Assembly: GCA_001687465.1 (NCBI GenBank)
Contig: LVLI01000233.1
Span: 62,001-126,000, forward strand
Reading direction: 5' to 3'
From: Halocafeteria seosinensis
Taxonomy: Eukaryota
Length of the DNA: 64,000 bases
Below, piece after piece: positions 20,473-46,694 of the stretch. The position numbers were made by a program, and so were the translations under genes. The notes under the pieces were generated by a model that was not told the DNA's origin, did no database searches, and worked only from the letters and a program-made list of their open reading frames with translations. How positions within the stretch are numbered: position 1 is the first letter of the stretch; every line of letters starts with the position of its first letter.

Positions 20473-22100
20473 TCATGACGGCGCAGGCGCAGCCCCCTGT
20501 TGAAATGCATTCAGCAACTGGGACACGCCAAGTGAACGACGACCGAAGCGAGCAGCTTGGCTAAATCCTCTGCCACCGTTATTATGCTTCGTTCTAACAC
20601 GCTGAGATTTTCTAGTTGTCGTTTCTGCTGCCTTGCTATCGCCTCTATTAGAGGCAGCATCCTTGGAGCTAGCTGCGGAACCTTCGGTGTTTTTTTTATC
20701 CAATGCCTTAGAAGGTCCATCCCATAGCTTTGGATTATAAACATTCTCCCATATAACCTCAAATGATTTCTGGGTCTTAATGCGACGCAGAGATATTGTA
20801 GTATCTGTCGGAGAATGTACATGATAGCCCTTGAGTTTTACTACAGTTTCATTCGGCGACTGCTCAACTGATTCAACAAGGCCCGCATACAATCTGGAGA
20901 TTTGCGGTACGTTTTGCGTATGATGTAATTTCAGCTCTTGGTAAGAAATCATGTCCCCCCTCTGTGGAGGTTCGCTAATTGAACGATGATCCATATACGT
21001 AACAGACTCCTCATCGGCGTCCGTCTGTTCACCTCCTCCTTGGCTTGTATTCTGCGTTCGTTCCGTTTGCCCATTCTGGGGGGCAGTAGTAGAACTTCCA
21101 TGGTTCTGAATAGGGTTTTGCGCTGGTTCTGTGGTTACACTGAGTGCGCTAGATACCTCAACTTGATCCTGGACAGAACGAGAGACTTGGTTGGAGACCA
21201 ATCCAGAAGGTTGTGGAGTGGCGGAGATGGTAGACGTAGCACCGCCGTGATCACAGTCTTGTTGTGAGCTCTGTGCAATGATCCCACCAGAAGACGTTTC
21301 CGGCCTTTCTTCTGTGTCATCTGCCGATTCAATTGCCTTTTTCGCCTTCTTTTGTTTTCTTGCAGCTTTCTTTGTAGCCTCCCTGTGTAAAGCTTTCTGT
21401 CGCAACCCCTCTTGTCGAGCTTTCCATCCCGAGGCAGGATCTCTCACATTCAGGCGAGCAATATCTCCGTCGTGCATTGTACGTATGGCGCACTCTTCAG
21501 TGCCGTCGGTAGTTGTGGGAGCTTGTTCTGTTGTCTCTGTCGCTTTCCTGGTGCTCTCATCCTCTTCCCGAGAACGCTTTCGTTTGGTTGACTTCTTCGG
21601 TTTCTGTTTTGCGGTCTCTTGGTGCTTTTCACTTTTCGGTTTACTACTAGAAGATTTTTTGAGCTTTTTTTCTACTTTGGACGACTTTTTCTTGGTCGTT
21701 GTTCGTGTCTCTGCAAGTGGCTGGACCCTCACGTTGTCTCCTTCGCGCAACACTTTGGTTGATTCCGACGCAGGAATGAACGCGGTTCCAATATACAGCT
21801 GTACATCCTGCTCAACCCCTAGGCATTCTCGAATATGCGCTTGAAGATCCCCGATCGTAGGGCACTCGGGTGGAACTCTAATACAGACTTGTGAGACTTG
21901 GTCCTCATTGCCAATTATCGTGACAAATATACGAATATCCGTAACTATGAATCCTGCAGGAGGACTGCTGTGTCTGCACCAGCAGCCAAAACACCAATAC
22001 ATGCTCTCAGAAAATGTTCCAGCAAAGAGCAGTCCTTACATATGGGGAGGTTGAGGAGAGGAACATGTGTATGCACTCACAAAGGGCGTAGACGACGCAT
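20473..22100 (-). CDS. COIL: Coilin-like protein (Cajal body scaffold)
   Basis: N-terminal TIGDL..HIR..LG....VQLYIG.AFIP..EST.VLREGD.VRV, a Lys/Ser-rich middle, and C-terminal Tudor-like PQRGDMISYQEL.L....PQIS..Y.G.V. The first exon (ATG 22100) is inferred. Confidence 0.75.
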
Positions 22101-22349: not shown

Positions 22350-23123
22350 ATGGAGCCCGAGCGACTGGTGGACAGTCTGCCGTCATGGATAGAGGAGGAA
22401 ACAACGGCGCTCTTGAATGCACCGCCGGGGACACCGTTCCCACGACCTGGAGTTTCCTGTGTAGGAGGCATTTTTGATGTTTTCCACAGCAAAGAAGATG
22501 AATCTTTACCTCCCTGTGAGCGAGTTTGTTTCACATTTACCGACGCCCGAAAGTGCATCTTTGCGTTCTTGTCGCCCGAGGCGTTTAACGACCTCACTCG
22601 GCGCTGTGGGGACTCGTCGGATTGGACTTGCCTATTGTTACATTTGCTGGATTTCGAGTTTGTCTCCGTTTTGAGGAAAGGATACCCGCGAGCGGAGATA
22701 GCACTTTACATCAAGAGTTTCGAAAAGTGTGGTTTAGCTGTGCATTTTGCTGACCAAATAGGATCGGTAGAGTATATTCTGGACTGCCAGGAAGTTAAGC
22801 AGCCTTGGACTGAGATGTCAATGTCATCCAGGTATAAGATAGCGCCGCTGGCAAAAAAACTACAGTGCCCTCCTATCGGAGTATTTAAGGGAGAAGGGAA
22901 TCAACAATTGGCGCGAACCCCCTTCAAGACAGTCACTGGTGCCGAAGTAAAAAGGAAAGCAAGACTCCTTGGTGAGAAAAGGAACGAACACGAAGAAATA
23001 CCGGAAATAAGTCCTGCCTTGGAGACAAATGAAGAGGGTAAATATCGGGACCAAGGCTCAGAGAGTAGCTGTTCCGTAGAGGGCGTTGGACATTATGATA
23101 TGAGTGTGGATCCGCTCGGATGA
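22350..23123 (+). CDS. TPP1/ACD/Est3-like OB-fold telomere protein (putative)
   Basis: The pattern LPSWI...GGIFDVF...FTDARKCIFAFLSPEAF...LLLHLLDFEF...EIALYIKSFE...YILDCQEVK parallels the TPP1 OB fold (LRPWI, SDG.HSV.C.VT.EA, RLLLLQD, EFYLQVD.F). Confidence 0.6.
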   Translation: MEPERLVDSLPSWIEEETTALLNAPPGTPFPRPGVSCVGGIFDVFHSKEDESLPPCERVCFTFTDARKCIFAFLSPEAFNDLTRRCGDSSDWTCLLLHLLDFEFVSVLRKGYPRAEIALYIKSFEKCGLAVHFADQIGSVEYILDCQEVKQPWTEMSMSSRYKIAPLAKKLQCPPIGVFKGEGNQQLARTPFKTVTGAEVKRKARLLGEKRNEHEEIPEISPALETNEEGKYRDQGSESSCSVEGVGHYDMSVDPLG

Positions 23124-23600: not shown

Positions 23601-24083
23601 TATGTCTTTGCTCCACGTGATCGCGTGCGAGAGTGGCTCAAGCCCTAAGCTCCTTCTAAAGGTTTCGTACAGTCTCAAGAAGAACACCACAGCGCTCTAG
23701 AACTTGATTTACTTCGCACTTCCTCTCTATATATCCAAATCCTGCTGTTGTTGCTCTCTGTGTGAGGTCGCCGACTCGCCGAGGTGTCAGCGCCCAACTT
23801 CAACGTCAAGCCAAGAAAGCTCAGGTTCAACCTTCCACTTTTCTTACAGGTTCACAGCCAATATCCAAAACTGTGAAGCGGGGTGCAATTTGCCGTGCAA
23901 TGCATGCCATAAGTGGAATTGATGCATGAATGAGTGCCTACAAGACAGTCGCGAGTATCGCTGTGCCACCTGCCGGAACAATTGGTATTTCACTTGCTAG
24001 AACCGGAGAAAATTGGCTAGAGACGCAGGCCTTCAAGTTTGTTTAAACGAAACGCTATTCAGATAGAACCCTTATCAACCACG

Positions 24084-25262
24084 ATGGAAGACACTGGAGG
24101 ACTGGGCCGTCTCCATAGTGGAACGAGCGCGTATGAGCAGGAGGATTTTGGGAGGATAGACTACTCTACGCTGTCTACAAGTCGCTCTGGACCACTGGTC
24201 CATAGCTCCTCAGTGGAATCGAATGGGCCTTTTTACAGACGTCCGACCGACAATAGTATACCAAGAGAATGGTCTACGTCTAGTTTCGACGTCTACGACG
24301 GTAGAGTGGATGAGCAAGGTTCCAATTTCCTCGCCACACCGTCAGTAGCCACGAGCCAGGAGCTCGATGGTTCAGTGCCGATCCCTAACAGTCAAGAGCT
24401 CGATGATTCTCATTATAGGCGTTCCAGTAGAGCGAAAAAGCGCGGGAGGTATACAGAAGTAGAACAGAGTGATGATATCGTCGTGGTGTCGCACAATCCG
24501 CCTCGAGGGTCCAGTAACCAGGGAAGCTATGTCGAAGACGAGCAGAGTGAAGAAGACACATTGTACAAGAAGATGCCCAACTACGGGGAGAAGACTAGCG
24601 ACAGCGTCACAATTGCTTCCGAAGACGATAACCTCCGGAAGCCCTCACACGAGTCAGAGCAGCATGAAGCAAATAACGGCAAGAGGTGTGGCGGCAAAGC
24701 CAGAGATATTGAAACCATGGGACTGCCTGATGTGTCGATGATAGACCCGAATTGCGGACTCCCCGACAAGATTTTCCGGGAATATAGTCCTGATGATGCT
24801 GTTTCTACAACATCGTTATCCTCGCAACCACTAGAACTTCGTTTGCTGCTGTCTAGCAAGGCTGCCGCCGCGCTGCGCCCGAATTCTCTTCGCTCTCAAT
24901 TCAGAGCTTCTTTGATCCAATGGGGGACGGGAAATCCTTTAACATACCTGGATGAAGAAGGAGAAATTCGACAAGCAGAGCCTTGTGTCAAGAGGCTGAA
25001 GCTGATGAAGGAGGGTAATAGGACGTATCTGTCAATGTGTATCCAGAGGAAGGGGGCAGCCAACGACCACTCGAAGTCGCTACCATTGAGCCGGAGCCAC
25101 GGCGGTTTTCCCTTTCACTTTATATTTGAAATCACTCCAACAGGAGAAGTTATTAAGTCGAATCCGGTAGAAATTTTGTCGAAAGAAACTCAAAAGCAAA
25201 GGAAAGAGAAGTCCGTTGTCAAACTTCTCGAGAGCAAGGGGAAGCTCGACTCACTAGTTTAA
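24084..25262 (+). CDS. Putative transcription factor, unassigned-domain family member 1 (one domain, ~24744-25190)
   Basis: Uninterrupted ORF. Disordered Ser/acidic N-terminus with KKR. Domain FREY..SQPLELRLLLS..EPCV..IQRKG..KSLPLSRSHGGFPFHFIF..SNPVEILSK. Confidence 0.75.
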   Translation: MEDTGGLGRLHSGTSAYEQEDFGRIDYSTLSTSRSGPLVHSSSVESNGPFYRRPTDNSIPREWSTSSFDVYDGRVDEQGSNFLATPSVATSQELDGSVPIPNSQELDDSHYRRSSRAKKRGRYTEVEQSDDIVVVSHNPPRGSSNQGSYVEDEQSEEDTLYKKMPNYGEKTSDSVTIASEDDNLRKPSHESEQHEANNGKRCGGKARDIETMGLPDVSMIDPNCGLPDKIFREYSPDDAVSTTSLSSQPLELRLLLSSKAAAALRPNSLRSQFRASLIQWGTGNPLTYLDEEGEIRQAEPCVKRLKLMKEGNRTYLSMCIQRKGAANDHSKSLPLSRSHGGFPFHFIFEITPTGEVIKSNPVEILSKETQKQRKEKSVVKLLESKGKLDSLV

Positions 25263-26337
25263 TATATGGTTGACGGTATGTTCCATTCCGGGCCAGTGTT
25301 TATGTTAGCTAAAGGGTGGACTGTGACTATCAGGGTCGGAATGTTGCTGTGGTTGAACGGCAGTGGATCACGTTCTAAAAGCTTTTGACTTCTGCTCATT
25401 TGCCAGTAACACTTTGGAACCTACCCCTACAAGTTCGAGTTCTTGCATTGGTAGCCCGCAACAAATGATTGGTAGAGTTAGGCCCTTCTAAACAGACTGC
25501 CTGAGTGAGTGCTATACCCATGAGCTGCCTACGGTTTCTAATAGCGTAGGTTTTAGGCTGGACCGGGGTGTTGAAACTGAACTTAAATGACCAATAAACC
25601 CGCCCCCATGAAGTTCAGCTTGAAATAGAACTGTGTATTGAACTCTACACTGTATATAAGCTTTTGTCGTAAGCATAAATGGAACTATGCATAGTGTAAG
25701 TTACATTTTCCATATGAGTCGGCACTGCGGCTGAACAACAAGGGTAACCACTTTAATGCGAACTTCAGTGCGAACTCACCAGTAGCAACTACTGAGTACC
25801 TTGCCAGTACGTGGTACTAAGCGCAAACGAGTCGCGTCACGGAATGCTTGCTCACATAAAATTGACCTGAGAAGCTCAGTCGTCTTTTGGAGAGGTTGAG
25901 TGTGTCATGTGGTGTGGCTAGGCCACCCACGAATGAACCCTACCCAGAACAGAAACACATGCTCACGTTATGGCGCATAATTTATAGAGAGCTTGGCCAG
26001 AATCAGATTCCGAAAGTCTGCCTGTGAACCATGTTTTCCGCAGCCAAGCATGGCTTCGGATACATAACTTTCTCGCGGCAAGAACCTTGTACCAAACGAG
26101 TCGAGTTATACATTTGTACCACTGATGCGAGGATTTGTTACAGATCAAAAACTTATCATCAGAAACGTCTTTTCCCATTAAACTCTTTTTCCTGAGCAAG
26201 TTGTGATTTTTAGGGTCAAACGAAAGCTTGCATTTTGCTCGCAAGTAAAGCCTAAGATCCGCAGAATTTTCTCGAACCTGAAACAGCAAGTTTCTCGACA
26301 GCTGAGGGTACCACGCTGCATTCTCGAGAAGGCAAGG

Positions 26338-28053
26338 ATGATGAAACAATCTGCCCTCAGGAGCAGTACTGGAGACTCATCGTTGCGAGGCTCGAGTGGC
26401 GGGTCGATTGGGTTAGAGTCGGGGAGGTGGGACTCGCTGTCACTCGGCCAGAGCGACAGTCTGGACGATGGGTTTGTCCCAGCTACAAACAGCAATGTCG
26501 TCGGCTGTACACCAGTTGAAGAGTTTCTGAGGGCCGCCTCTTCTGGCTCGTTAATGTATGATAATCACGGGAGTTATGGGTCTGATAAAATTGGGAAATG
26601 GCTTCGCCAGTTTAGTGGCAGTTCGTTGGCTTTAGATTGCGCTTACTGGGAGAGTTCGGTTGACGCCTTCGTGGAGCAATACCGCAGTAGCTCCGATGGA
26701 CTCAGAAACATAAGCGATGGTTCCTTTAGCTTTTACTGTTCCAATCAAGATGGTGAGAACGAAGGCTCTGCTAAGTCTGGAGATTCACTCCCCCTGGAAA
26801 TCGGCGACGTCCGTTCAGGGTCGCCCTTGTTTGATGATAGTGTGGAGAACTGCATACCCTTCAGCGGAATTCCCACGGATATTCAATCTGCTGCTGCCTC
26901 AAAAGTTCCAAGTGGGAAACGACCACCGGACGACTTGGTCTGCGATGAATCGGGTGGGAAGCACCAACGTCTCGCTGAAGAATCAGAAGAACCGTGGCTG
27001 GAACATGATCTCTCGGGTCATCTATATCAGGAACCGGTGGTGAATGGTTCCACGACGTCAAAACCGCTGGAGCTTCGACTGAATCTTACCGATAGTTGGT
27101 ACCAAGAACTTGCTCGGTGTAGTGCCTATTTCGAGAACGTTCTAGTTGAAATTGTGAAGGATTTCAGAGAGGAACAACCCAGGTTCTTTGCTCAGAACGG
27201 CAAAGGTAAGACTGCTGGTGACATGAAAATACCGACAGTGCGAGAAATGTGGCTTGAAGAGAAGAGCGGTGCACCTTCACAGCTCGTCATCAAAATTCAG
27301 CGCAAACCTAAGAATCCCTCAGATACTGAAGGTTGGTTGCCCACGTCTAAGGGACATGGAGGGTTCCCGTTTCAATTCCGAGTTACCCTTCGTCCGGCAA
27401 ACAAGAGCTTTACATCCTTCCCCACCATGATTCATACAAAGCAGTCGCTGAAGCAGACCACGCGAGCTACCTCCACGGTAAAGTTCAATAGACCAAAGAG
27501 AAATCGAGAAGGCCATGAAACAGCGGAGAGAATTCCAAGTGCCCTCAAAGTATCCACAACTACTTCCCAGTTTCTACCGGGGCACGGTCTTCCCCAGGTG
27601 GTGTTTCAAGAGTACCTTAACGAGAGCGGGAATTGCCGCTCCGAAGACATAGTGGTTATGCTGCGCCTTTCACAGAGAGCCAAGGAGGCAATTTCAGCAT
27701 ACAGTAACGTAGCGGACGGTTTAGATGTCCGACTCGTGAAAGATGATGCTGATGTGCCAGTCGAACCAGAATACTTTGACGTTGACACCGAGCTTATTAA
27801 AGTTGCAAGACCTTGCGTAACTCAAGTGTCGCTTCACAACGGAATCTTAACCGTCTACATCAAACGTAAAGGACAAGGGAAAAATAATTCGAAGTCTCTC
27901 CCTCTGTCGAAGTGTCATGGAGGATTTCCATTCCGGTTTTGCTTCCGAATTCGTGATGTACATGTACATCATGATTATGTTGAAACGGTGAGTTCGCAAC
28001 CTGTAGAGGTCCGGTCAAAGCAACCAAAGGCTCAGCAACGTCGTCCGAAGTGA
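26338..28053 (+). CDS. Putative transcription factor, family member 2 (two domains, ~27004-27443 and ~27577-28023)
   Basis: Uninterrupted ORF (open from 26203; first likely Met at 26338) with two copies of the HGGFPF domain and a basic tail QQRRPK. Confidence 0.8.
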   Translation: MMKQSALRSSTGDSSLRGSSGGSIGLESGRWDSLSLGQSDSLDDGFVPATNSNVVGCTPVEEFLRAASSGSLMYDNHGSYGSDKIGKWLRQFSGSSLALDCAYWESSVDAFVEQYRSSSDGLRNISDGSFSFYCSNQDGENEGSAKSGDSLPLEIGDVRSGSPLFDDSVENCIPFSGIPTDIQSAAASKVPSGKRPPDDLVCDESGGKHQRLAEESEEPWLEHDLSGHLYQEPVVNGSTTSKPLELRLNLTDSWYQELARCSAYFENVLVEIVKDFREEQPRFFAQNGKGKTAGDMKIPTVREMWLEEKSGAPSQLVIKIQRKPKNPSDTEGWLPTSKGHGGFPFQFRVTLRPANKSFTSFPTMIHTKQSLKQTTRATSTVKFNRPKRNREGHETAERIPSALKVSTTTSQFLPGHGLPQVVFQEYLNESGNCRSEDIVVMLRLSQRAKEAISAYSNVADGLDVRLVKDDADVPVEPEYFDVDTELIKVARPCVTQVSLHNGILTVYIKRKGQGKNNSKSLPLSKCHGGFPFRFCFRIRDVHVHHDYVETVSSQPVEVRSKQPKAQQRRPK

Positions 28054-28719
28054 TAGGAGACATACACTGAAATTAAGAGCTTCGCAATCTTTGATTTGGG
28101 TGTTGCTACAGTATTATTGCGTTCGCCACATTGTTGGCACCGTTGGCATCCAAAGATGCGAACCGCGAATGCACACATACGTATCCGACCACTCTATGAA
28201 ATAACAGAATGTATAATTCATGGCTTACCGGCTGAATATTCAAATGGACCACGACTACATGCATGCACCGTGAAGACACTGTTCAAGACAAACAAGGCTA
28301 CAACAGTAGGCAGCAGCTCAAATCTCCACAAAAGGAGTGCGTCACACCCATTAAGTCTAGTCCAATTCTATGAATGCACGTTCTTTTAGTCCCCTTTACA
28401 ACCAGTAGAATAAACATCCTCGTGCTACACACTGTGTAACACACACTGTATACCCCTCCATCCCAGGGTGGTACAACGAGTGTATGCGGCAGTTCACTGC
28501 CGCTTGTTCCGACTCCGCGTGAAAGTGCAATGCCTCTCGACACGACTAGGTTCTCGTTACTATAGTGAGTGACCCCAGTGTCGTAATTCTAGGAATGAGT
28601 GTAGTGCCTTGTTTTTAGGAATTCTCAGAACGGCTGGATCTCGGCAATGTGGAGGCCTGTGACCCTTGCAAGTAGCTAAAGGTGGTATCCGAAGCGTGTA
28701 TAGGCTGTATAAAAAGACA

Positions 28720-31700
28720 ATGGCCTCCAATTTCTTTGAATCCTCTATGGCATCGGGCGAATCAGCCCTTCAGAAAGTCAATGTAAGGCCTGCAACAAGC
28801 GAAGCAGCACTTGGGATTGAGCTTCACGACTCACACTTCGCATCTGCAGGCTCCCAAAGCGTATAAACAGAGCCGCCAGGCGATTTCGGCGGCATTCACA
28901 GCCGCCGCTGGGCTCGGTGGAGCTGCCATGAGTTTGCTGAAACTAGACATTGTTCGGGACTTTGCACAAAATGTAGCGCTGTTCTTCTCCACCATAGCAG
29001 CCAAAGCGCTGCAGCTGGCTCGGGAGACGTTTGGCCGAGTTTTTGGGGTGATCTCCATTGACCTCAACATGGTCTACAACAAGATCAATCCGTTCTATGT
29101 TATAGTCGCGCTTGGAATTTTGACCGTTATCTTGGTCATTACGTTCATCGCACTGTACTGCCTTTCCCGTAAGATGAATCCGGATGATATCCGACAGGTA
29201 CGATTCTTAACAAGGCCGTGCTGGAGAAATGCGTTCAAAACTAAGGTTTAACATTGTTTCAGGGTCATGAAGTTATCAAATGGGACGAGCGGAAAGAAGA
29301 TCAAAATATCCGGGTGTCGTTCATTAAGTATGGCCTTCTGGCTGGAACTTCCCTGTACCTTCCAGTCTCCCGAGCTCTGGCAGCGCTTGTCCGCTGTAAT
29401 CCCCAAATGATTCGGGTAAGTCAAACTTGTGACCAGACTTTGAGGGACTTCCTTCATCTTCTACTCTTGTCGCTCACATCAGGTGCTTGTTCAAGATGAG
29501 TTCCTGCAAGTGGAAGACGTCATCAACGCAAGTTCCAGTTGTCAAAATCTCACTATGGCCCTAAACGATGGAGCATCTGATTCCGATATCATCAACAATG
29601 AACGAAAAGATGTCAGTTTTGAGGACTGCAACTGCACAGATTGGAGTAAGTGTGGCTTTTCTTCTGGAATGCAGCACTCTCTTGGCATGCTCTTGCATGA
29701 CTCGCTTCGGCTGCAGAACCGTATACTATTGCGAGAGCAGTTGGTGCTGTGCTCATACTTCTATTCACTGTCGGATTTCCCGTGTATTGCATCTGGCTTA
29801 TCAAGAAGAACAAACCGTACGGCAGTCCTGAGGATCCCGAAAAATGCTACGACGAGGAAGGTAACCTCGTGGAATACACTGATGACCGGTAAGCCCCTTC
29901 GGCAGAAATTTCCAATCCATTTTTGGAAAATGCGGTCGCTCTTTCTAACATGTGATGCAGATATCAAGATGATTTGAAAAACGACCCAAATCAGCTTAAT
30001 TGCCCTTATCTGACACTGTAAGAGTCATTGTAGATGGGAGGCGTATTTGCACATTGAGTCGGTAGCATACACGCACATGCAGATACGACGGGTATGAGAG
30101 AAAATGGTCGTTTTACAAAGTTTGGGTGATGGCAACCAAATTCCTCCTCGTAGCTCCGACGATTATTTGGTTTCAATACCCATTGAGGCAGTCCATTTCC
30201 AGTGCCGTGGTAATTGGCGTTTTGAGCGGCTTCTCCTTTCTTTCCACCCCATTTATTGACCCTACCGGTAGGTCTAGCTTATCTAAACAGGTTGCGCTGG
30301 ACATTTCGTTGAAGATTTGTGAGCCTTCCTTGCAGATGATTTCTTGGACGCTGCGGGAAGAGTCACTAGTTTACTGACAATTTTATCTAGTTTAGGCTCA
30401 TCGTACTACTCCGGAGGAGCTCTCTCTGCTATAGTAATGGTGGCCAACTCTATCAATGCAGTTGTGATGGTTCTGGGAATCCTATGGGGAATATCCAAGG
30501 TTCGTTCTGTGCTGAAGAGTGTCACAGGCCAGCTCCAGTTTAGCGATAGTGTAAGGAAGATAGTCGGCTCGGCTAAGCGTATCATCCCCCATTGGGACAT
30601 TGCGTCGGAGCTGAAGCGGCGTATCTGGCACCCGTTTTGGGAATCGGTCCTACTCGAGGAAGGTGAGGTTTATGCTCGGCGTCTAACAGAGATGCAGCAA
30701 CAAGCCAGAGACACTGGAAAGAAACGAATTCTTGAGCATTGGAAGAATGGTGCTGTTCCTGAAATCAATAAAGTGCGCCAGCGTCTGATGGAGGAACACG
30801 AAGGAGTCGACGTTTACTTTTCTGGGGTATGTGCTAACTAACCGTAACTTGTGTCACAGTGTGTTAACATAGACCGTCGAATCCTTCTGCAGGAGACCCA
30901 TGACGGAGACCTTGATAGCAGCACGTGCTTTGGCAAGATGTATATTGTAAACTATCCTTTTCACGCTGTTATGGTCTACGATGACAGTGATGACTACACC
31001 TTTATCTGGGAAGGTAGGCATCGCTGATCTTCTAGTTGCTGTCACTCGAATAACACGTTATCTCCAAATACTGCTGCTGTGCAGATCGCACGACAAGTCT
31101 CCTGGAACAAAATGAAGACGAAGAAATCCAACGACGAAGAACAGTTCGAGAAAAGCTCCGAGGCCTGTGCGGTCCTGACCTTGGTTATGGACCCACTCTT
31201 ACTTTTCATTTAGAGAGGTGGGAAACGCATCAAGTGCCAGATGGCGTCGAAGAATACAAAGATAGCGAGGGCAACATCCAAACTAGACAAAGATACTCCA
31301 GCGTTGAGGTGCTGATGAGGTATTCTCAAGGCAATCTCGCTATAGGGATGAATTATGATCTTTCGATGCAAGCAGGTTTTAAGTTCGCTTTGCACCTGGT
31401 AGATGGCTCAGGGACAGCTGTTGCTCCCAACACTGGGGAAAGCTACACCGTGCATAATCAAGTGACACTTGGTAGAGAGGAGATAGGAATCGACAATCAG
31501 TACGTTTCCTGTCTACAGTTCCGCCAGTGATAGGGTATGGTATAATGGTGGTAACAAGAAGTGCAGGTTTAACGAGTGCGATGCACTTCGCCAGCTTTTC
31601 GAAAACAGTCCCAATGACGACATTTGGCCGCAGGGTCTGGAGCGCTGGCAGTCTCGAGTGCGTGAATATAGGACAAGTTTGATGCGTGAACGCTGCAAAG

Positions 31701-32674
31701 AGGAGAGCATTTTGAGCTCCGCATTTTGGTTACATATTTACGACAACGATACTGCAACTCGGGAGGAAATCGAGGCATATTTCAAGAAGTTTGAAGCTCG
31801 AGATAAGGTTAAATCGATTCCGGCAAGACATCAATCTGGACTCGACTACCTCTTGAATAAGATGACTTGGGTGAACAAGCATCCGTGTGCTGCAATTTGG
31901 TAAGTTCTCTACGCATGATTACTGTTTAGTTATCCGCTGTGGAACATCATGTTTGGATGTAAGAGACAGGTATGTATTCTTTGATGATTTATGGGAAACG
32001 AATAATGAAGTTGGTAAAATAGCCGATCTTCAGGAAGACCTGGATCCTACGTAAGTTTGTGCATCGCGTCGATGTCTTTTGGACGTCTTATCGAGGCTGT
32101 GCACGCTTTCAGTGAAGAACACTCGATCGCGTTTCGCCCTATGAAACGAGAGCGACTGGAAGAATGGTTGGATGAACGCGGCCTCAAATCTGGCTATCGG
32201 TGGCTAACTCCCAAAACCCTGAATATATTGTACAATTTGGTAAGCTCGGTGTGCAAGGCTTCGGTTTGCGAAGTAGCACGGAGAGTACATGTATCAATGC
32301 AGCTCGACCAGACGGATGAAGACTATCGCAAATTCGACGACGAATTGCGGCAAGTAGAGGACGAGGAAGGAGAAACAGAGGAAGTCCGTGGAAAGCGTGC
32401 ATCCGATGTGGGTCGTCAGTATTCCTCAACGGTTCAATGTGCCTATAGCGTGCGGCGGAACACGCCAACCAACAGAGTCGTCCGCCAGAGTCTAAAGTCG
32501 ATGCAGGAAGGGCATGTACGCAATATTGCAAACTACTCGGACGGCGCTTATATCCCAGAGCATGTCGAGGGTGATCAGTTTCCTTCGGAAGCTACGAATG
32601 CTCCAGCAGATAGTGATCTTACAGTTCCACTAGCGCAAGCTGGTTCTGACAACAATGCTTACGGATCTGTGTAG
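28720..32674 (+). CDS. Uncharacterised multi-pass membrane protein (many exons)
   Basis: Chain of + ORFs linked by GT-AG introns, with several hydrophobic helices (VIVALGILTVILVITFIALY, SSAVVIGVLSGFSF, ALSAIVMVANSINAVVMVLGILW) and a long soluble C-terminus. TATA-like tataaaaa just upstream of the ATG. Confidence 0.7.
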
Positions 32675-33365
32675 CTCTCAGATCGGACTCAAGCCTCTGG
32701 ACTTTCACAGAATTAAAATACATTCTAAGAAGCCATTAGCTACGACGATAATATTGTACCCTTACCTACAAAGGTAGGAGTAACTTCCTTACACAAACGA
32801 GTCACGTTCAACTGCCCGCACTTGGCTCCCTTGCTGCTCGGGTTTGTGTTGTGAAGCTGAGTACGATCCTGGTGCCGTACCAAGTACACTCATCTTATAT
32901 CGAGTAAGTAAGCAAGGCTTGATATGAAAGGTGAATGGCAAATTTTAACAGAGCTATTTTGCTTGTGGTTTATTTGCTGATAGAGAGTGTGTCGATGTAT
33001 AAAGGCATATCGTTTCAAAATAGAGGTGTATACCATACATCCTACCCTCACCCTCACACAGGAAGAAAATTCATTCTGACGGCTACCACTGTAGAGACTC
33101 TTGCTAGCAGCATTGTTCACTACAATATCGTTTGCTGATTACATGAATACTGAAGGCTATAACATAGAGGAAAAACACGGCCTGGACTAGAGCGTCTGGA
33201 TCCTGGAGCTTCTGCCTGCAGCGAAAGAAAACTCTCTGAACCCTCAGGGAACTGCTCTGAATCAGCCATAACAGAAACGATAACAAAGCATTCTGTTGAT
33301 CGTAACGAAATCTACGAAATATTTTCGATTATTTAGCACTGTATCCAACCGGAAGCCAAGGCGAA

Positions 33366-35228
33366 ATGGCTCATCTGCGTATGCCGAGTACCTCCACCTT
33401 AGGAGCAGCGATGCGAGAGCCATGTGATTTTCCGGACGGCCTCCGCAGCGACAGCTGGGGCTGGAGCTGCGTGTACGATTCTCCTCCAGACTCACTTAAG
33501 ACCGAATACCCCTGTTGTGCTGTTGGACTGAGTCCTGTCGACTCCGCGGATTCCGGGTCTGCATTGAGCATGTGTGTGCGGTGGACCGGCTCTGACGTTT
33601 CTTTACGAACGATCAGTCGTGTTTCGGACAAGGGTGAATTTGATATGCAGCTTAGCTACCATCCAGAGCACAGGGAAATGGTTGTTAGCGAATGCTCCCC
33701 CAGCAAGCAGACTTTGGCAGATCTAGAAGCAGCTTCCCCGTATCGTCCCAGTCCGAGACGCTCGGATAACGTCCGTCAATCTTCGCGGGAAGCAGAGCGA
33801 TGTTTACGCTCTACTTTCTATGGACATTACAGTACTGAAGCGAGCGGTCTTATTCCGGACCCGCACAATTCAACTACAGAGAGTGGTACCATAACTCATC
33901 GAAAAAGAAGCAGCACGTCATGTAGTGATGAGTATGAACGAAGGGGATGCAAAAGGCGCCGGACAACGCACGAAATCACTGACGATTCAACTGATACGGA
34001 ATCGGACACTGATGAGACAGAAACTCATATTGTTTCCGCTCCTGCTAAGTATTCGTTTTGCGAGGGCGAGCCAACAAGAGTAACTGACATGCCTGAGCAA
34101 ATATATCAGGAACCCCTTGTGAACGGCTCCATTAATTCTAAACCTCTAGAGATTCGACTTATCCTATCAAAGCGGTGGGAGCAGCTACTTGCGTCATGTA
34201 CAGACTATGCCAAAGAAGTTTCACTAGTAACTGTTAAAGCTGAGAGACGTCATGAAGAGCCAAGGTATTTCGTCGGAGACGGTAAAGGAATGCCAGCTAG
34301 TCAGCTGGGACGACCAACAATTCGGGAGATGTATCTGGATAGACGGAAGGGAGAACCTTCTCAACTTGTCGTGATGGTACAGCGAAAGCCAAAGAACACC
34401 TCGACAAAGACCCACGGTTGGTTGCCTACGTCCAACAGCCAGGGTGGTTTCCCCTTCCTCTTTCGTTTTACCCTCCGTAGTAGCAAGGAAATTGTGGATT
34501 CCCGTCCCGTTTTTATAGATACTAAGCAATCTCCCAATCGTGCTAGGGAACCCGCTTCATGCAGGAAGTCTACAAACGTCCCCAATCGGGAACGACCCAC
34601 GTTTGTTCCCGGGTATAAATGCCCTCATCAATTCTTCCTGAAGAACCTTAACAAGTATGGAAGCTCTGACGAAGATATGTTTGTTCGCGGATACGGCTTT
34701 CCTCGTCGATTGTTCCAGGAGTATAGAAACCCTGATGGAAGCTCTGGCTCCGAAGACATTGTCATCAAGCTAAAACTTTCCGCAGACGCAATGAAAGCTA
34801 TGCAAGCCTGTCGTTGTCCAAAAGAGTGCCTCCATGTCCGTCTCGTGAAAGATGATCAAGAGGAACCTGTTGAACCCGAGTACTTCGACTCAGAAACCCG
34901 TTCAATCAAGGTTGCAAGGCCGTGCGTCACGAGTGTCATCTATCTTGATGGAATTTTAACAGTAACCATAAAAAGGAAGGGACAAGGTAAAAATAATCCA
35001 AAGTCGCTTCCTTTGACAAACTGCCATGGTGGCTTTCCCTTCCGATTTTGCTTCATCATTGTGGATACTGTCGATACCAAAAATAAGGGCGAAAACTGTA
35101 ATCAGGATGCCGTTGTTCACAAACACACAGTTGTTCAAGTGATCCGTTCTCAACCGGTGAAAATATTTTCGAAGCAAGCGAACCCTAAAAAGTCAGTGGG
35201 AAGAACGGGAAGAAAACGAATATCTTAG
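33366..35228 (+). CDS. Putative transcription factor, family member 3 (two domains, ~34086-34530 and ~34689-35177)
   Basis: Uninterrupted 620-aa ORF with NLS-like RKR/KRRR, two domain copies closely paralogous to those of member 2, and a basic tail GRKRIS. Confidence 0.8.
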   Translation: MAHLRMPSTSTLGAAMREPCDFPDGLRSDSWGWSCVYDSPPDSLKTEYPCCAVGLSPVDSADSGSALSMCVRWTGSDVSLRTISRVSDKGEFDMQLSYHPEHREMVVSECSPSKQTLADLEAASPYRPSPRRSDNVRQSSREAERCLRSTFYGHYSTEASGLIPDPHNSTTESGTITHRKRSSTSCSDEYERRGCKRRRTTHEITDDSTDTESDTDETETHIVSAPAKYSFCEGEPTRVTDMPEQIYQEPLVNGSINSKPLEIRLILSKRWEQLLASCTDYAKEVSLVTVKAERRHEEPRYFVGDGKGMPASQLGRPTIREMYLDRRKGEPSQLVVMVQRKPKNTSTKTHGWLPTSNSQGGFPFLFRFTLRSSKEIVDSRPVFIDTKQSPNRAREPASCRKSTNVPNRERPTFVPGYKCPHQFFLKNLNKYGSSDEDMFVRGYGFPRRLFQEYRNPDGSSGSEDIVIKLKLSADAMKAMQACRCPKECLHVRLVKDDQEEPVEPEYFDSETRSIKVARPCVTSVIYLDGILTVTIKRKGQGKNNPKSLPLTNCHGGFPFRFCFIIVDTVDTKNKGENCNQDAVVHKHTVVQVIRSQPVKIFSKQANPKKSVGRTGRKRIS

Positions 35229-35751
35229 AGAGGAGCGAGGGGATTGACCATGACAATGCAAACTGCCGAAGAACGTTTGAACCACTGCGTTCCTCGCTGT
35301 TAGGACAGTGTTAGCAGCCCCAAAGCCAATACTAAAGGATCATGATGGAACATCTACACAAATATAAAATAGCTACATCAATAATAAACCCCTTAATAGT
35401 AGTAAATTAAAGGTTATCTTCGGGAATTCTTCATGTCGTAGCATGTGTCACAGGGTGTGTGTCAGCGTGCCCCTCCTCACGGTCAAGTTGAAGCGTTTTC
35501 CGCATGTCTTTTTGAAGAAAAATATCCCCGCGAAAATGTTCTCATGCGCTCAGAAAGAAGTTGTTGATATGCAGGAAGCTTTCATTTTAGAGTCGGTGGC
35601 GTTTTCCGATCAGGCTAAAATCACAGTGCCACCATAAGACTACACATGTAATTTCGGGAACCGTTTATTCCTTGTTCCCGAGCCTTCGGCATTTTCACAA
35701 CGCCTTGTTCAACAGCGCCGTTGAGCCCTTGTTTGTCCTGTCGTAAGGCCA

Positions 35752-36989
35752 TGGCGCAGGCCTCTCAAAGTGCTATAAGCCATAGAGAGGGAAATATGGA
35801 TGCCAACGAAAACTCTGCCAAGAGATTGAACCCTGATACGCCTCAATTTCGCATGGCATCGATGTCCAGTACTGACTCGGAGCGTCAGTTTGGCAGCCCT
35901 CGGAGCCAGTTTGGGAGGGACATATCAAATGGATACGGGTTTGAGAGGGGTTTAAGTGGTAGTTCAGGTTTCCATTCAAGGATAAGTAGTGAGTTCGATT
36001 ACGGATATGGAAGAAGAGGGAGCATGAGCTCCCAATTCAGCGGTGGAAGCATTGGGCTGCCGAGTGCAAGCGAGGTGAGCTTTGGCAGAAGTATGAGTGA
36101 GAGTTCAAAATTTCCAAGATTTCATAGCGACAATTCTTTCTATAGGACATCGTCAATTGATAGCCTGAATGCTCAAGAGCAGCACACAGTGGAGAGTTTA
36201 GAAATGCTGCGGCAAGCCGCAGGGCACTATTTGCAACCGGCTCCACGGGGCTCAGGAACCCCACAGTTCAGCTCTAGTAAATCATTTGACCCTTACCCAG
36301 CAAGGGGATACGAGGACTCACAGGCTGTCACTGTCACGGGCAAGAGGTACCGAGAGGAGCCAATTCCAGAATCAAAATTCAATCCTTCTGGCGTTTTTGT
36401 TTCAGCAACCTCAGATCCGGGACCAGCAGCGGACGCCGGCTTGCATTCCTCGTCCGAAATTCAGCAAGATGAGGGGGCTTGGTCGGATGTAACGATGGAC
36501 AGAACAATAAGGCATCCGCATTATGATTTTCCTTCACCACTGTACAGAGAATACATTGCACAGAATGGATCGCTGGCATCCGATCCCGTTGAGGTTCGAT
36601 TGATTCTTTCAAAGAAGGCCAGTACTGCTCTTTCGGAATATGAAAATCCTGCAGATGGGTTGTCTGTGACACTTGAGAAGCATATGCGCCAATACGATGA
36701 GCCTGAGTACTACGATGATCAAGACGGCAAGATTAAGACCGCGAAACCATTCATCAAGGCATGTTATTTGCAGCATGCTCCTCCTGGAAGCAGAAACAAC
36801 AAATCACAGCTCATTGTTAAAATACAGCGCAAAGGACCTGTCAATGATAGTGGGAAATCTCTCCCTCTCACCAAGTGTCATGGGAACTTTCGTTTCCGAT
36901 TCCGTTTCAGAATCCACAAGACGGACGAGCAGGTCTTATCGGATCCAATTGAAATCCGATCGAAGCAAACGAGGAAAAAGAATCCATAA
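35752..36989 (+). CDS. Putative transcription factor, family member 4 (one domain, ~36513-36969)
   Basis: Uninterrupted ORF. Domain YREY..NGSLASDPVEVRLILS..KPFI..IQRKG..KSLPLTKCHGNFRFRFRF..SDPIEIRSKQTRKK. Start codon 35752 or 35796. Confidence 0.78.
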
Positions 36990-37261: not shown

Positions 37262-37930
37262 ATGAGAGAGCTTCGCTATCATGAGAAGAAGCTCCTCAAG
37301 AAGGTGGACTTCCTCCAGTGGCGTACAGAGCGTAATGTACGCGAAATACAGATTCTCCGAAGGTATATGATACAGAACAGGGATGATTATCACAAGTACG
37401 TTTGATGGAATCGAAAGCTGGGTGTCTGGTTATCAGTGCACAAGCAAATGTACAACACTGCCTGGTCGGTGTCACCCCCTCAACTTCAAGTGGAATCGTG
37501 CTTTTCGTGCAGATACAATAAGTTAGTAGGGAAGGTGACCAAGCTGGTTTCGAAGCTCAAGGAACTTCCACCGACAAATTCGCTACGCATAAAGACCACA
37601 GAAATGCTGCTTGATAAATTATATAAAATGGGATTGATCACCACCACCAGTAGTCTGAGCAAAGCCGAGAAGCTACCAGCTTCAGCGTTTGCTAGGAGAC
37701 GTTTACCTGTGGTCATGGTCCGATTAAAATTTTGCGAAACGCTGAAGGAAGCGGTTACATTCGTTGAACAAGGCCACGTGCGCGTTGGCCCTGAAGTTGT
37801 TACAGATCCCGCATTCCTGGTTACTCGGCCGATGGAGGACTTTATTACTTGGGTGGATGATTCGAAGATCAGGAAAACAATTGCTCGCTATAATGATAAA
37901 CTTGACGACTATGATCTGTTAGGAGAGTAA
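37262..37930 (+). CDS. IMP3: U3 snoRNP protein IMP3 (S4 domain)
   Basis: MRELRYHEKKLLKKVDFLQW...RDDYHK|YNKL...AFARRRLPVVM...AVTFVEQGHVRVGPEVVTDPAFLVTR.MEDFITWVD.SKI. One intron at ~37396-37512. Confidence 0.95.
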
Positions 37931-38198: not shown

Positions 38199-40509
38199 TC
38201 AAGCACCACGACATTCATTTTCCTTCCCCGTTGGGCTGGAGTTGGTGTAAGCCCCACACTGCACACGAGATCCATCCTTCTTCCTCACAAACACCGGTTG
38301 TCCCTGTAATTGGGTAAAGTTGTGGTCCTGAGGATTCGCAAGTCTCAAGTTACCATTAGTCTGGTTCGTCGGCTGCGGGACATGGGGAAGTTTCTGGGTG
38401 CTTGGTCTGGTGGTAGTGCTTTTGAGAGGGCTGGACGCAGGCGCCCTTTTCGAGGGAGAATGCTGACTACGTGACCGCCGTTGGTGGTTCAACTGTGTCT
38501 CGCTCCTCAGGGAAGTCTTCACGGGACTTGACGGTATCCGTGCATTTGAATGAGCATTGGTACTACGGCCTTCAGCAGATTGCTGCCGCTTTGACAAACG
38601 AGTAGGAGTTCCTCCGACGCTAGAGCGTTTGGGATTGATACTCTTCCGGCTGGGTGTAGATGCTAGCCCTTCCACTGGCGGGTCAGTAACAGCAACATCT
38701 ACGTTCTCCTTGTCGGTGCCTTGAGAGCCGGAAACCGATTCCTTTTCAGCACACGATGGCAAGTCATTTCCTATCACCTCGACGGGAGAATTCCTCCCTC
38801 CCGATGACGTGCTATGCCTAGAAACGCTCTTACTTGCTTTCTGCCCCATCGTTGGGTTGACATTCCTTTGCGTTTGCGACCGTGCACGCAACCATTTTTG
38901 TCCTTGTGTATCAGTGACAGTGGAACTTGCCATAGACGCACTGGAACCGGTGTCACCACGAAGTGCTACTGTATTGCCAACGGATCTGCTCACGTCTTTA
39001 GTGGGGAATGTCGCTCGAGAGTTTTCCTTCGTCAGTGCGGAAGGAGTATCGGCTGCCTCTTGGGTACTCGTTTTTAACGCTCGGGTGTTCTTGTCTACTT
39101 TGGTAGGGACTTTGCGTGGTGAATCCTCAGAATAACGTTGTTGATGTTTCACTACATTATGCGATTGGACACGTAGACGGTTTTGCCCGTTCACTTGGCC
39201 GGTACTTTTCTTGTCCTCTCTTGTCGAGGTATACCTTACTTCCGATTTCTTCTTCGGCGATGATTGATCCACATTGCCCTGAAGTTGCTCTGCGACGGTA
39301 TTTAGCTTATTCAGTGTTGCTCGAAGTAAGCTTGGATCATTAAGTGGATCTCCACTCAGTCTTTTAGCACTGTTTCTTGTACTTATGGAGGTATCCACCA
39401 TTTGCGAGAAGCCGGAGTCATTCTGCAAGTCGATTCCCAATTCTCCCGCTTTTTGATAAATTTCATGAACAAGTTTCACCTCTGGTGAAGGCTCTGCAGG
39501 AGGAGTCTTTCGTGTTTCATTGACCGGTTTCTGCACGCGTTTTCCTTTCTTTTCCGACTTCTGCGGCAACGCTCCGGCATCTGTAGAAGTCTTCGAGGGC
39601 GTTTCGGCTGCACCAGCATTAGATGGTGCTCCATGGCTCTTCCACTCAACATTATCTTCCTTGTGCCATTGAGGAGACCGTAAGGGAGAGCTATTGCCAG
39701 TAGAAAAGCTCGGCAGAATGTTCTCCTCGCCAGACAGGTAAAATTGATCGCCACTTGGTTGTCGCACTGGAGAACTAAATCCTGGACTTCTCCCCCATGA
39801 AACGTCTTCCAGGGAGGTATTATAAGTGCTAAACTTCTTCGAAGATACCTGAGAATTTTTGTTGCTTGTGTCAAGAGCAACCGATTCGGTGTGGTTCCGT
39901 TTTTCCTGATTCTGGTATTGCATTTCCATGGCTGCAAGGGTGTCAACATCCAGTTCCCAAACATTGTTAGATCCCGTCTTTTCAGGTGACGGATGAGAGC
40001 GATTTGACGTAACAGTTGAATTATCTTCTTCTGGGTCACGGAAAACACTAGTATCGACAAACTTGCTTCTTCCGGGGAGCTCATCGGAATACGTAACCGG
40101 GCTTCTCATCGGCCTGCTGTATTTCTTCGAGGTTTTGCCCGTGCCTTTAGATTCCATCGCATCCTTGTAGGGGGAGTTTCTACCCGATTCCTGCGAGGAA
40201 TGGGAAGGTTCAGGTTCCATGGACGTGAGATGCGGAGGCTCGCTCTCTTACCTTCAAGCGATCGAGTTTCTTCCCGAGATATCGCACATTATTCTTATGA
40301 TCCCATTCATCCCTAGAAAGCATTCTTTCCAAATCTCTTCGAAAAGCTCGAATGCATCCATAAACAGAACTCCTTTCTCCATGGGGATGGCCGACACTCA
40401 GAAGCCAGGAAACGGCGCGTTTCCGGTCATCCTTTCGCACGCAGTGAAAACCTTTCCAACGTCGATGTTGAGGCGTCTCCCGATCCGAATGATGATGAGC
40501 TGGGTTCAC
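38199..40509 (-). CDS. Hypothetical Ser/Pro/Lys-rich, largely disordered protein
   Basis: A 673-aa ORF plus an upstream exon joined in frame through an intron (~40192-40252, AAG|gtaag...cag|GAA). Both ends uncertain. Confidence 0.65.
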
Positions 40510-41700
40510 TCACGGAGTCCTGCTGTTGAACAGTGGAAACTAACGAGTAACTAACAAAAGAAAGCCTTGAACTCCACCAGCTCAATGTAGAACAGCAAGC
40601 TCTGAGAGCTTCCCGTTGGTGTATATCAGGCTGTCACTCAATTCCAGAGTTTTTCTCGATAGTGACTGAGTTCACTCTGAACCACCGAAATTTCCAACTC
40701 ACGAAGAACAGATCTGTATACGAAAGCGAAGTTCGGACGTTGCGACGGACCGGGCTAGTTCGCCGGAGCTTTTAGCCTAGGTCGCCAGCATCGCAAGCTC
40801 CGGAGCTCAGGAAGCCAAGCTATTCAGGGCAGTCAAAGAAGATGGCAGCACGGCAATATACAGCTGATGGGCGTTATATTTCGTGTGAACTAGTGTTTGT
40901 TCGAGTAAACACAAAAGATGCCAAATATTCGGCGACAAAGAATGGTGCACAGCAGACTGGGGCTCTGAACGTGGAACGTGCTATGAAGAAAAAGCTACAG
41001 ATATTGTTTGTAAAACGTTCTCTATTTGTGACCGGTGGAAGGAAGACCTAACAAACTCCACTTTGTGGTGGCGTGATATTTGGCGAAGTATGGGTATCAA
41101 ACTACCGCTACCCGTAAAATATTTAAAATGATGAATTAGTGCTTCCCTCCCGCTCCAACCATACTGAGATACGTAGGCACACATCTGTTTTGAGTGCTTG
41201 TATGTCAGAATCTTCTAACGACTTGTAGGCGGCATGTTTCTCGGTACCACTACAAGACAGAAAGGCGATGAGTGCTGCGGCGCAAAGCAGCAGTAGCAGC
41301 TCTGCGTCTCAATCGGGACACAAACTCGCTCGTGAGAGTCATCCCTCCACCGCCGTGGAATCCTACCAAGAGCGTGAGTCCGACAGTGCTTCTTTGTTTC
41401 AATTACTTGCAGTTGTTTACGTCGGGATGCGAGGGGCATCGACAAGAATGCCTTAAGGTCATTTCTCCAGATATACAAATTCCTTGTTGCCAGTGTTGCG
41501 AACAGGCCTACGCCGAGACGATGATCGACTCTCCTACAGCATGCGACTATAACCGTATTCATTGATATTGAATGGTTAATGGACATCAGTTTCGTCCATT
41601 TAAAGTTAAGGGATCATAACAATGGCACTCCTGAAACGGATAAACAGTTGCCGCTAGTATCGTAACGCAAAGTTCAACAATGGAGAAAGGAGATAAGCGT

Positions 41701-44507: not shown

Positions 44508-45115
44508 GTTTCTCCTTGCTGGAATCCGTTAGAAAATGAAAATAGAAGAAAGAAAAGAAAAGAAGGAAAAAAGAGAGGACGGCACTGCCACCGCCCGTGC
44601 TTTAGCTCACAACTCAGTGTATTTGCCGAATTTAGTGCAATGACTAGAAAGGCTAACAGTGGTTGAACAAACAGTCAATGACCGCCTTTCGCTGCCAGTA
44701 TTTCTGGTGAGAATGTGTATACAATGACTAAGAAATGGGAATATCTTCCGTGCGGAAAGTGCCACTTCAATCACAGTTACACCAAGGTTCTCGGATGTTC
44801 GTCAACGGCTTACATTACAATGCTGACATGGTGATACAGAATTGGAGATTGTTCCGAGTGTTGGGATCACCATATCTAGCTAAACTATCTACCCAAGACT
44901 ACAATGCGATCAGAATGGTACAACTCCAGCTCACTGAACGAGAATCAGAATGTAGTTGCATTGTCCACGTATTTAGTCACCCTTTTGTGTTTATACGATG
45001 ATGCCCGGCATACTCCATTTCACAAACGAGTCCGAATCTTCTATGATGTGTTGCTCGATTCGTACCCAGGCTGTAGAGGAAGCTGCAGCCTGCAGCTCCA
45101 AATCATACTGCCAGC

Positions 45116-46694
45116 CGATTCCCAATTCTCCCGCTTTTTGATAAATCTCATGAACAAGTTTCACCTCTGGTGAAGGCTCTTCAGGAGGAATCTTTGCGTT
45201 TCATTATCCGGTTCTGCACACACTTTCCTTTATTTTTCAACTTCTGCGGCGACGCTCCTCCCGCATCTGCGGAAGTCTTCGACGACGAAAATGTGACTGA
45301 TGGCCCACCGGCAGCTGGATGTTAGCCGCTACAATTAGGTAGCAGCTGGCGCCCGTGTCTGGCAGCTACAGGCCCGCTGTTCCACTAGGAGAGAGGCAGC
45401 ATAAACGAGTGACTTCAAAGCATTGACGCAGACCCGAACTTCAGTATCCGTTTGCGTCACATCCCATGGGACCTCCGCATGGCTAGCTAGCAGTTCATTG
45501 CTTAATAGGATTGGGAGGATATTGTTGTTAGTTTCCTCTTGCACGTATAAGTCAGTTCGTGTAGCTTGCTCTTCGGCTGTTCTCGAATCCGAAATCCACC
45601 CGAGACGTGCTGTCCGTCTCAGTTCTTCGTCTCTCTTCTCTCCTGGCTCTCGATCCCCCTTCCCCATTGGTGTCTTCCCAACGTTCCATTCCGTCTCGTC
45701 CTTACTCCCCCGTCTCGACACAGCCGCTTGACTCGCTAGCAGTTCATAGGATATTGTTGTTAGTTTCCTCTTGCACGTATAAGCCAATTCGTGTAGCTTG
45801 CTCTTCGGCTGTTCTCGAATCCGGATTCCACCGGAGATGATGCATCTTCGTCGCTGCCTCTGGTCGAGAATTGATGGACTTCGTTCTCGAAAGTCGTTCC
45901 ATCCCTGCGCTGGTGTTCCTCTAGCGCGCGCTTTGTGTCCCCTTTTGTTCTTCGAGGGCGTTTCGGCTGCACCAACATTAGATGGTGCTCCATGGCTCTT
46001 CCACTCAACATTATCTTCCTTGTGCCATTGAGGAGACCGTAAGGAAGAGCTATTACCAGTAGAAAAGCTCGGCAGAATGCATTCTTTTCAAATTCCCTCG
46101 AAAGAGTCGAATGCATCCACAAACAGAACTCGTTTCTGCGCGGGGATGGGGCGCGTTTCCGGTCATCCTTTCGCACGCCGTGAAAGCCTTTCCAACGTCG
46201 ATGTTGAGGCGTCTCACGGTCCGAATGACGATGAGCTAAGTTCACTCACGGAGTCCTGCTGTTGAACAGTGGAAACTAACGAGTAACTAACAAAAGACAG
46301 CCTTGAACTCTACCAGCTCAATGTGGAACAGCAAGCTCTGAGAGCTTCCCGTTGGTGTATATCAGGCTGTCACTCAATTCCAGAGTTTTTCGCGATAGTG
46401 ACTGAGTTCACTCTGAACCACCGAAATTTCCAACTCACGAAGAACAGACCTGTATACGTCGTAATATACGAAAGCGATGTTCGAAGTTGCGACGGTCCCG
46501 GGCCAGTCGCCGGAGCTTTTAGGTCGTCAGCATCGCAAGCTCCGGAGCTCAGGAAGCCAAGCTATTCAGGGCAGTCAAAGAAGATGGCAGCACGGCAGGA
46601 TACAGCTGATGGGCGTTATATTTCGTGTGAACTAGTGTTTGTTCGAGTTAACACGAAAGAAGCCAAATATTCGGCGACAAAGAATGGTGCACAG
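45116..46694 (-). pseudogene. Rearranged partial duplicate of the 38199-40509 gene and its upstream region
   Basis: 45116-45282 matches ~39431-39596, 45949-46079 matches ~39590-39720, and 46080-46694 matches ~40320-40952. High nucleotide similarity with indels and frameshifts. Confidence 0.85.
45486..45832. repeat. ~100-bp direct repeat (45486-45600 and 45735-45832)
   Basis: Shared gctagcagttcat...aggatattgttgttagtttcctcttgcacgtataag...gtagcttgctcttcggctgttctcgaatccg. Confidence 0.9.

Follow-up and report, generated by a model that had tools for sequence, protein, structure and literature searches.

Four genes within a single stretch of the Halocafeteria seosinensis genome encode six copies of one domain of about 150 residues, which is predicted to fold as an immunoglobulin (Ig)-like beta-sandwich; the proteins are probably transcription factors (TFs), with the domain as their sequence-specific DNA-binding part, belonging to the p53/Runx/Velvet/EBF clan. 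Support for membership of this p53-like DNA-binding clan comes from several lines that are convergent and individually weak. H. seosinensis is a halophilic bicosoecid stramenopile, and the stretch of 64,000 nucleotides analysed here (the window) is typical of a compact eukaryotic genome, with short spliceosomal introns and a GC content of 43-52%. The genes and their domains are as follows:

24084..25262, + strand: gene 1, 392 aa, Ser/acidic N-terminus and a single C-terminal domain (EukProt copy P0008, same length, 3 substitutions)
24747..25208, + strand: gene 1 domain, aa 222-375 (six-copy alignment, profile search)
26338..28053, + strand: gene 2, 571 aa, two tandem domains (EukProt copy P0006)
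27001..27471, + strand: gene 2 domain 1, aa 222-378 (pairs in the tree with gene 3 domain 1, support 100/100)
27577..28050, + strand: gene 2 domain 2, aa 414-571 (pairs in the tree with gene 3 domain 2, support 100/99)
33366..35228, + strand: gene 3, 620 aa, two tandem domains (EukProt copy P0007)
34077..34550, + strand: gene 3 domain 1, aa 238-395 (six-copy alignment, profile search)
34686..35201, + strand: gene 3 domain 2, aa 441-612, with an insertion of about 20 aa in the predicted F-G loop
35751..36989, + strand: gene 4, 412 aa, Ser-rich N-terminus and a single C-terminal domain (exact sequence in EukProt)
36516..36986, + strand: gene 4 domain, aa 256-412 (used for the fold model and as the reference for residue numbering)

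The four genes are expressed and lack coding introns. In the transcriptome-type protein set EukProt, genes 1-3 each have a counterpart of equal length and without gaps, differing by 3, 3 and 4 substitutions, respectively, and the gene 4 protein is matched exactly; the records of genes 1-3 bear names of transcript-assembly type and are marked complete, and judging by these names the frames are therefore transcribed without coding introns. In three sequencing runs (X2-X4), contigs of the neighbouring genes are joined across GT-AG introns of 62-117 nt, joints which run X1 does not show, and among 15 of the 18 joints listed (13 re-checked) none fell inside the four ORFs. None of the runs listed is on record as RNA, and since X1-X4 come from one study, possibly the source of the window itself, they do not provide independent support. 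The first-pass annotation, made from the sequence alone, had regarded the four genes as intronless amid spliced neighbours; the missing joints and the collinear EukProt copies agree with this, but the property is not unique to them, because no joint interrupts the ORF at 22350-23123 either.

The same annotation had proposed a cluster of four co-oriented paralogues starting at 24039. All four ORFs do lie on the + strand and are genuine paralogues, but the ATG of gene 1 is located at 24084 and a multi-intron gene interrupts the cluster between genes 2 and 3. This intervening segment (28928-32674) harbors one or two genes with about ten introns of 62-72 nt, and the three exons tested gave no Pfam match. 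The gaps upstream of genes 2 and 3 measure 1075 and 691 bp, compared with 482 bp for gene 1 and 522 bp for gene 4, in keeping with the 0.7-1 kb of apparently non-coding DNA described earlier; much of the gap between genes 1 and 2 is nevertheless probably UTR, since contigs of the spliced runs (24256-25489 and 25686-26871) cover part of it. The cluster is flanked by a gene for a Coilin_N protein (20473-22002, - strand) and one for an S4-domain protein (37263-37930, + strand) that resembles IMP3. A short dispersed repeat downstream of gene 2 (28200-28370), marked in the unspliced run by raised depth (418, compared with about 105) and numerous loose ends, is possibly a MITE- or SINE-like element. 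In two spliced runs, the segment 35065-35099, which belongs to the insertion in the second domain of gene 3, matches further contigs of high depth that have loose ends. Further downstream, 39418-40952 and 45103-46694 form a recent local duplication (87-98% identity), the second, decayed-looking copy representing part of a low-complexity gene at 38199-40220.

The 10-mer CAAACGAGTC occurs four times in the window (25824, 26093, 32794 and 45023), three times upstream of genes 2 and 3 and once about 500 bp upstream of a TPR-like ORF. Any 10-mer was found thrice in the combined upstream regions of genes 2 and 3 in 23 of 2000 simulations, and 32 different 10-mers reach at least four copies in the window; picked post hoc, CAAACGAGTC is a weak candidate for a cis-element. 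The number of 7-10-mers common to all four upstream regions was within the shuffle range.

Alignment confirmed six copies of one domain, distributed as 1+2+2+1 over the four ORFs, and reproduced the motif order previously read from the sequence, with 17 invariant columns. Pairwise identity among the six domains is 25-57%, all 15 domain pairs score well above their shuffles (z 14.7-74.9; 200 shuffles per pair), and a 26-row family profile recovered exactly six copies from the six frames of the window, at 136-179 bits with the next best hit at 7.3. Genes 2 and 3 share 49% identity over 370 aa. The N-termini contain 15-19.5% Ser and 12-18% D+E, with net charges of -5 to -17, as expected from the earlier description of Ser/acidic N-termini with patches resembling nuclear localization signals (NLS), although the K(K/R)x(K/R) patch of gene 2 sits in the inter-domain linker and not in the N-terminus. 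Of 29 family proteins, 24 carry this NLS-like motif where 8.6 would be expected, a number reached by none of 1000 composition shuffles; near-identical copies, cluster mates and a false positive were left out of the count. A Pfam copy of 24,736 models, presumably without PF28397, yielded no significant family for the four proteins, six domains, 25 homologues and 26 rows, and sequence searches of the PDB yielded nothing significant. No description of the domain family was found in the literature; the TFs named in parts of PMC5447177 are of the bZIP, sirtuin, Myb, AP2 and HSF classes, neither 'p53' nor 'immunoglobulin' appears in the main text of this paper, and its supplements could list the genes under other identifiers.

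Intronless genes amid spliced ones, and a dispersed repeat just downstream of gene 2 (about 28200-28370), would also be compatible with genes that derive from a mobile element or virus instead of being host regulators. Such an origin is highly improbable: the Pfam scan revealed no family of transposases, reverse transcriptases or capsid proteins, none of the four genes is bordered by long inverted or direct repeats, the copies diverged long ago (25-57% identity) and still have intact frames, the GC content of the genes matches that of the window, and the best viral structural match is poor (BFVD, E 1e-3, TM 0.29).

Searched against 1.84 billion cluster representatives, the six-domain profile gave 30 matches at E <=0.001, 18 of them at 1e-10; four correspond to the genes described here and one (P0033) is a false positive. 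The latter, a repeat protein with at most 3.2 bits against the 26-row profile, was dropped. Of the remaining 25 matches together with P0005, sources were looked up for 20 within P0009-P0033, of which 15 originate from other assemblies and five from the same transcriptome (P0010, P0013, P0021, P0023 and P0027, two of them with two domains). H. seosinensis possesses at least nine genes of the family with at least 13 domains, a genome-wide count that rests on transcriptome-type records. In a tree built from 31 domain rows, with near-identical copies, cluster mates, two partial matches, one split domain and the false positive excluded, the first domain of gene 2 is the sister of the first domain of gene 3 (100/100), and the same applies to the two second domains (100/99); both genes therefore derive from one two-domain gene, and the tandem or local expansion suggested at first reading is thereby placed, for this pair, as a duplication of a two-domain ancestor. 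P0027 groups (99/96) with six proteins from other assemblies whose E-F loop is shorter, and P0010 (99/97) with two from other assemblies, so that subfamilies span organisms and the family is older than the cluster. Its members may be clustered in other places too. For both P0011 and P0016 the longest contig listed measures 31,620 bases, and the record numbers of P0021 and P0023, like those of genes 1 and 2, are nearly consecutive. P0019, a K/N/I-rich two-domain homologue on a 70 kb contig, forms a long branch of the tree. Scans for genomic context among metagenome contigs with A1 and P0019, and among viral contigs with P0019 and P0017, found nothing.

The model of the gene 4 domain (pLDDT 93.7) aligns over its full length to Ig-fold chains, and the beta-sandwich guessed at the outset was thus recovered as a confidently predicted Ig-like sandwich. 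In Foldseek searches against the PDB neither of two models produced a match at E 0.001 or better; the longest alignments among the structural matches belong to seven separate DNA-binding families, and CSL, NDT80, T-box and NFAT are not among the 50 matches listed, which is no ground for their exclusion. Over the 26 family rows, K/R is kept at positions 105 (25/26), 106 (24/26), 150 (26/26), 55 (22/26) and 74 (16/26), L116-P117 is invariant, and H122 and G123 occur in 16 and 21 rows, respectively. Strand labels of the s-type Ig fold, assigned by strand order and not from coordinates, put the A-B loop, C-C' hairpin, E-F loop and tail at one pole. Conservation at this pole exceeds that of the opposite loops (mean JSD 0.46 vs 0.30, p 4e-6), while the split of top conserved positions by pole (10/66 vs 2/33) is not significant (p 0.16). 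Net charge is +2.7 in the E-F loop and +1.8 in the tail, against -0.6 in the A-B loop and -1.6 in the C-C' hairpin, and the A-B loop has no conserved K/R in the 26 rows.

The initial reading of these proteins as Ig-fold TFs holds in part: the fold is predicted as proposed, and no named family was matched in the Pfam copy scanned. As the predicted fold resembles the domains by which p53, Runx and Velvet proteins grip DNA, the genes likely constitute an overlooked family of gene switches. The domain could instead be an Ig-like nuclear or cytoplasmic module for protein interaction or RNA binding, its basic patches serving import or an acidic partner. We consider this unlikely, in view of the seven DNA-binding families with the longest structural alignments and of the language-model neighbours, among which all those with a characterised family are DNA-binding domains of the p53-like clan; in addition, a low-complexity Ser/acidic region combined with an NLS and one basic domain is the usual layout of a TF.

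As TFs, the proteins would enter the nucleus by means of the basic K(K/R)x(K/R) patch and would grip DNA with one end of the sandwich, namely the long loop that follows strand E (with R105, K106, invariant L116-P117, S/T119, H122 and G123) and the tail beyond the last strand (with S149, K150 and the basic residues that follow), in the manner of the RUNX1 loops and C-terminal tail. The Ser/acidic N-terminus may act as an activation or phospho-regulated region. In genes 2 and 3 the fusion of two diverged domains would allow a longer, two-part site to be read, for which single-domain members might need a partner. The cluster itself grew by local duplications, a two-domain ancestor giving rise to genes 2 and 3.

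A different question is whether the domain is a divergent branch of DG1062_N (Pfam PF28397), a named family with a wide protist range, and for this the chances appear only slightly below even. For both the gene 4 domain and P0009, the three top-ranking Atlas clusters are DG1062_N clusters (0.88-0.91; 181-185 features shared), and 6 and 8 of their ten best family-bearing language-model matches agree on this name; the clusters are eukaryotic, with haptophyte and oomycete members. However, DG1062_N is carried by only 50-60% of the members of those clusters, 4-10 of every 100 shuffled proteins attain 0.9, the recognition value is low (1490), and 30 matches in 1.84 billion representatives are fewer than a close haptophyte/oomycete-wide family would give. 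DG1062_N was likewise not matched in Pfam, but its name stems from Pfam 38.1 and PF28397 is presumably missing from the 24,736-model copy. The literature searched held no description of DG1062_N and no paper pairing DG1062 with Dictyostelium, and the papers listed for the bare term are unrelated by title. Membership would be compatible with a role as TFs, altering the novelty of the family and not its mechanism.

The family is real, expressed and locally expanded, and is perhaps already catalogued under an uncharacterised Pfam name. To our knowledge, Ig-fold DNA-binding families of the p53 clan have been described mostly from animals, fungi and amoebae. It is possible, with chances somewhat below even, that these at least nine genes and 13 domains form an undescribed p53/Runx/NF-kB-type branch of TFs outside these groups, with a DG1062_N-like link to oomycetes and haptophytes. 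If so, the clan would be an old, pan-eukaryotic class of regulators whose protist members, missed by TF surveys, read DNA with the E-F loop and tail and not with a basic A-B loop. Catalogues of protist TFs rest on Pfam matches, of which these proteins have none in the copy scanned. Confirmation of the family, in a supergroup other than those of the known families, would widen the range of the clan, bear on its age and add about nine regulators to the repertoire of one protist.

Among characterised systems, RUNX1 shares the Ig-like fold predicted here (structural matches 4l0z, 3wts and 1ean), but structural alignments show 6-8% identity, the Runt profile of Pfam is not matched, and the present family has extra helices and a hairpin, with two tandem domains in some members. 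RUNX1 contacts DNA through two loops and a C-terminal tail, with D171, R174 and R177 touching bases (parts of PMC3683927); residue 155 of the model aligns to RUNX1 177, with a register uncertain by one. Velvet proteins are likewise structural matches (VosA 4n6r_A, VelB and VeA 9i2s), again with no Pfam match. Their DNA binding needs the basic loop A (K37, K39, R41 and K42), whereas the loop B lysine K160 is dispensable (parts of PMC3876986). In structural alignment the terminal lysine of the family falls at K160, and the loop corresponding to loop A is not basic here, the conserved basic residues lying after strand E and in the tail; the Velvet requirements thus count against a simple transfer of mechanism. 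The DNA-binding domain of EBF1/COE (3mln, 3mlp; PF16422) is a further structural match, from which the family differs by its shorter domain and by the lack of a Pfam match and of any IPT or HLH domain found. EBF/COE proteins carry a zinc knuckle with His/Cys ligands; no conserved Cys set is present here, with Cys in at most 7 of 26 rows of any column. By language-model features, the best characterised neighbour is the N-terminal domain of CSL/LAG-1 (PF09271), at 0.85-0.86, which remains below 0.9 and without a LAG1-DNAbind Pfam match. CSL proteins consist of three domains including a beta-trefoil and a C-terminal domain, whereas the single or doubled 150-aa domain with low-complexity flanks leaves no room for these two. 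The CudA-like factors, a small lineage-restricted TF family reported from Amoebozoa only (parts of PMC8808424), resemble the present family by description, both having diversified through local duplication. Although by the tests run it is a member of none of the RUNX, EBF, Velvet and CSL families, the domain may well work as theirs do.
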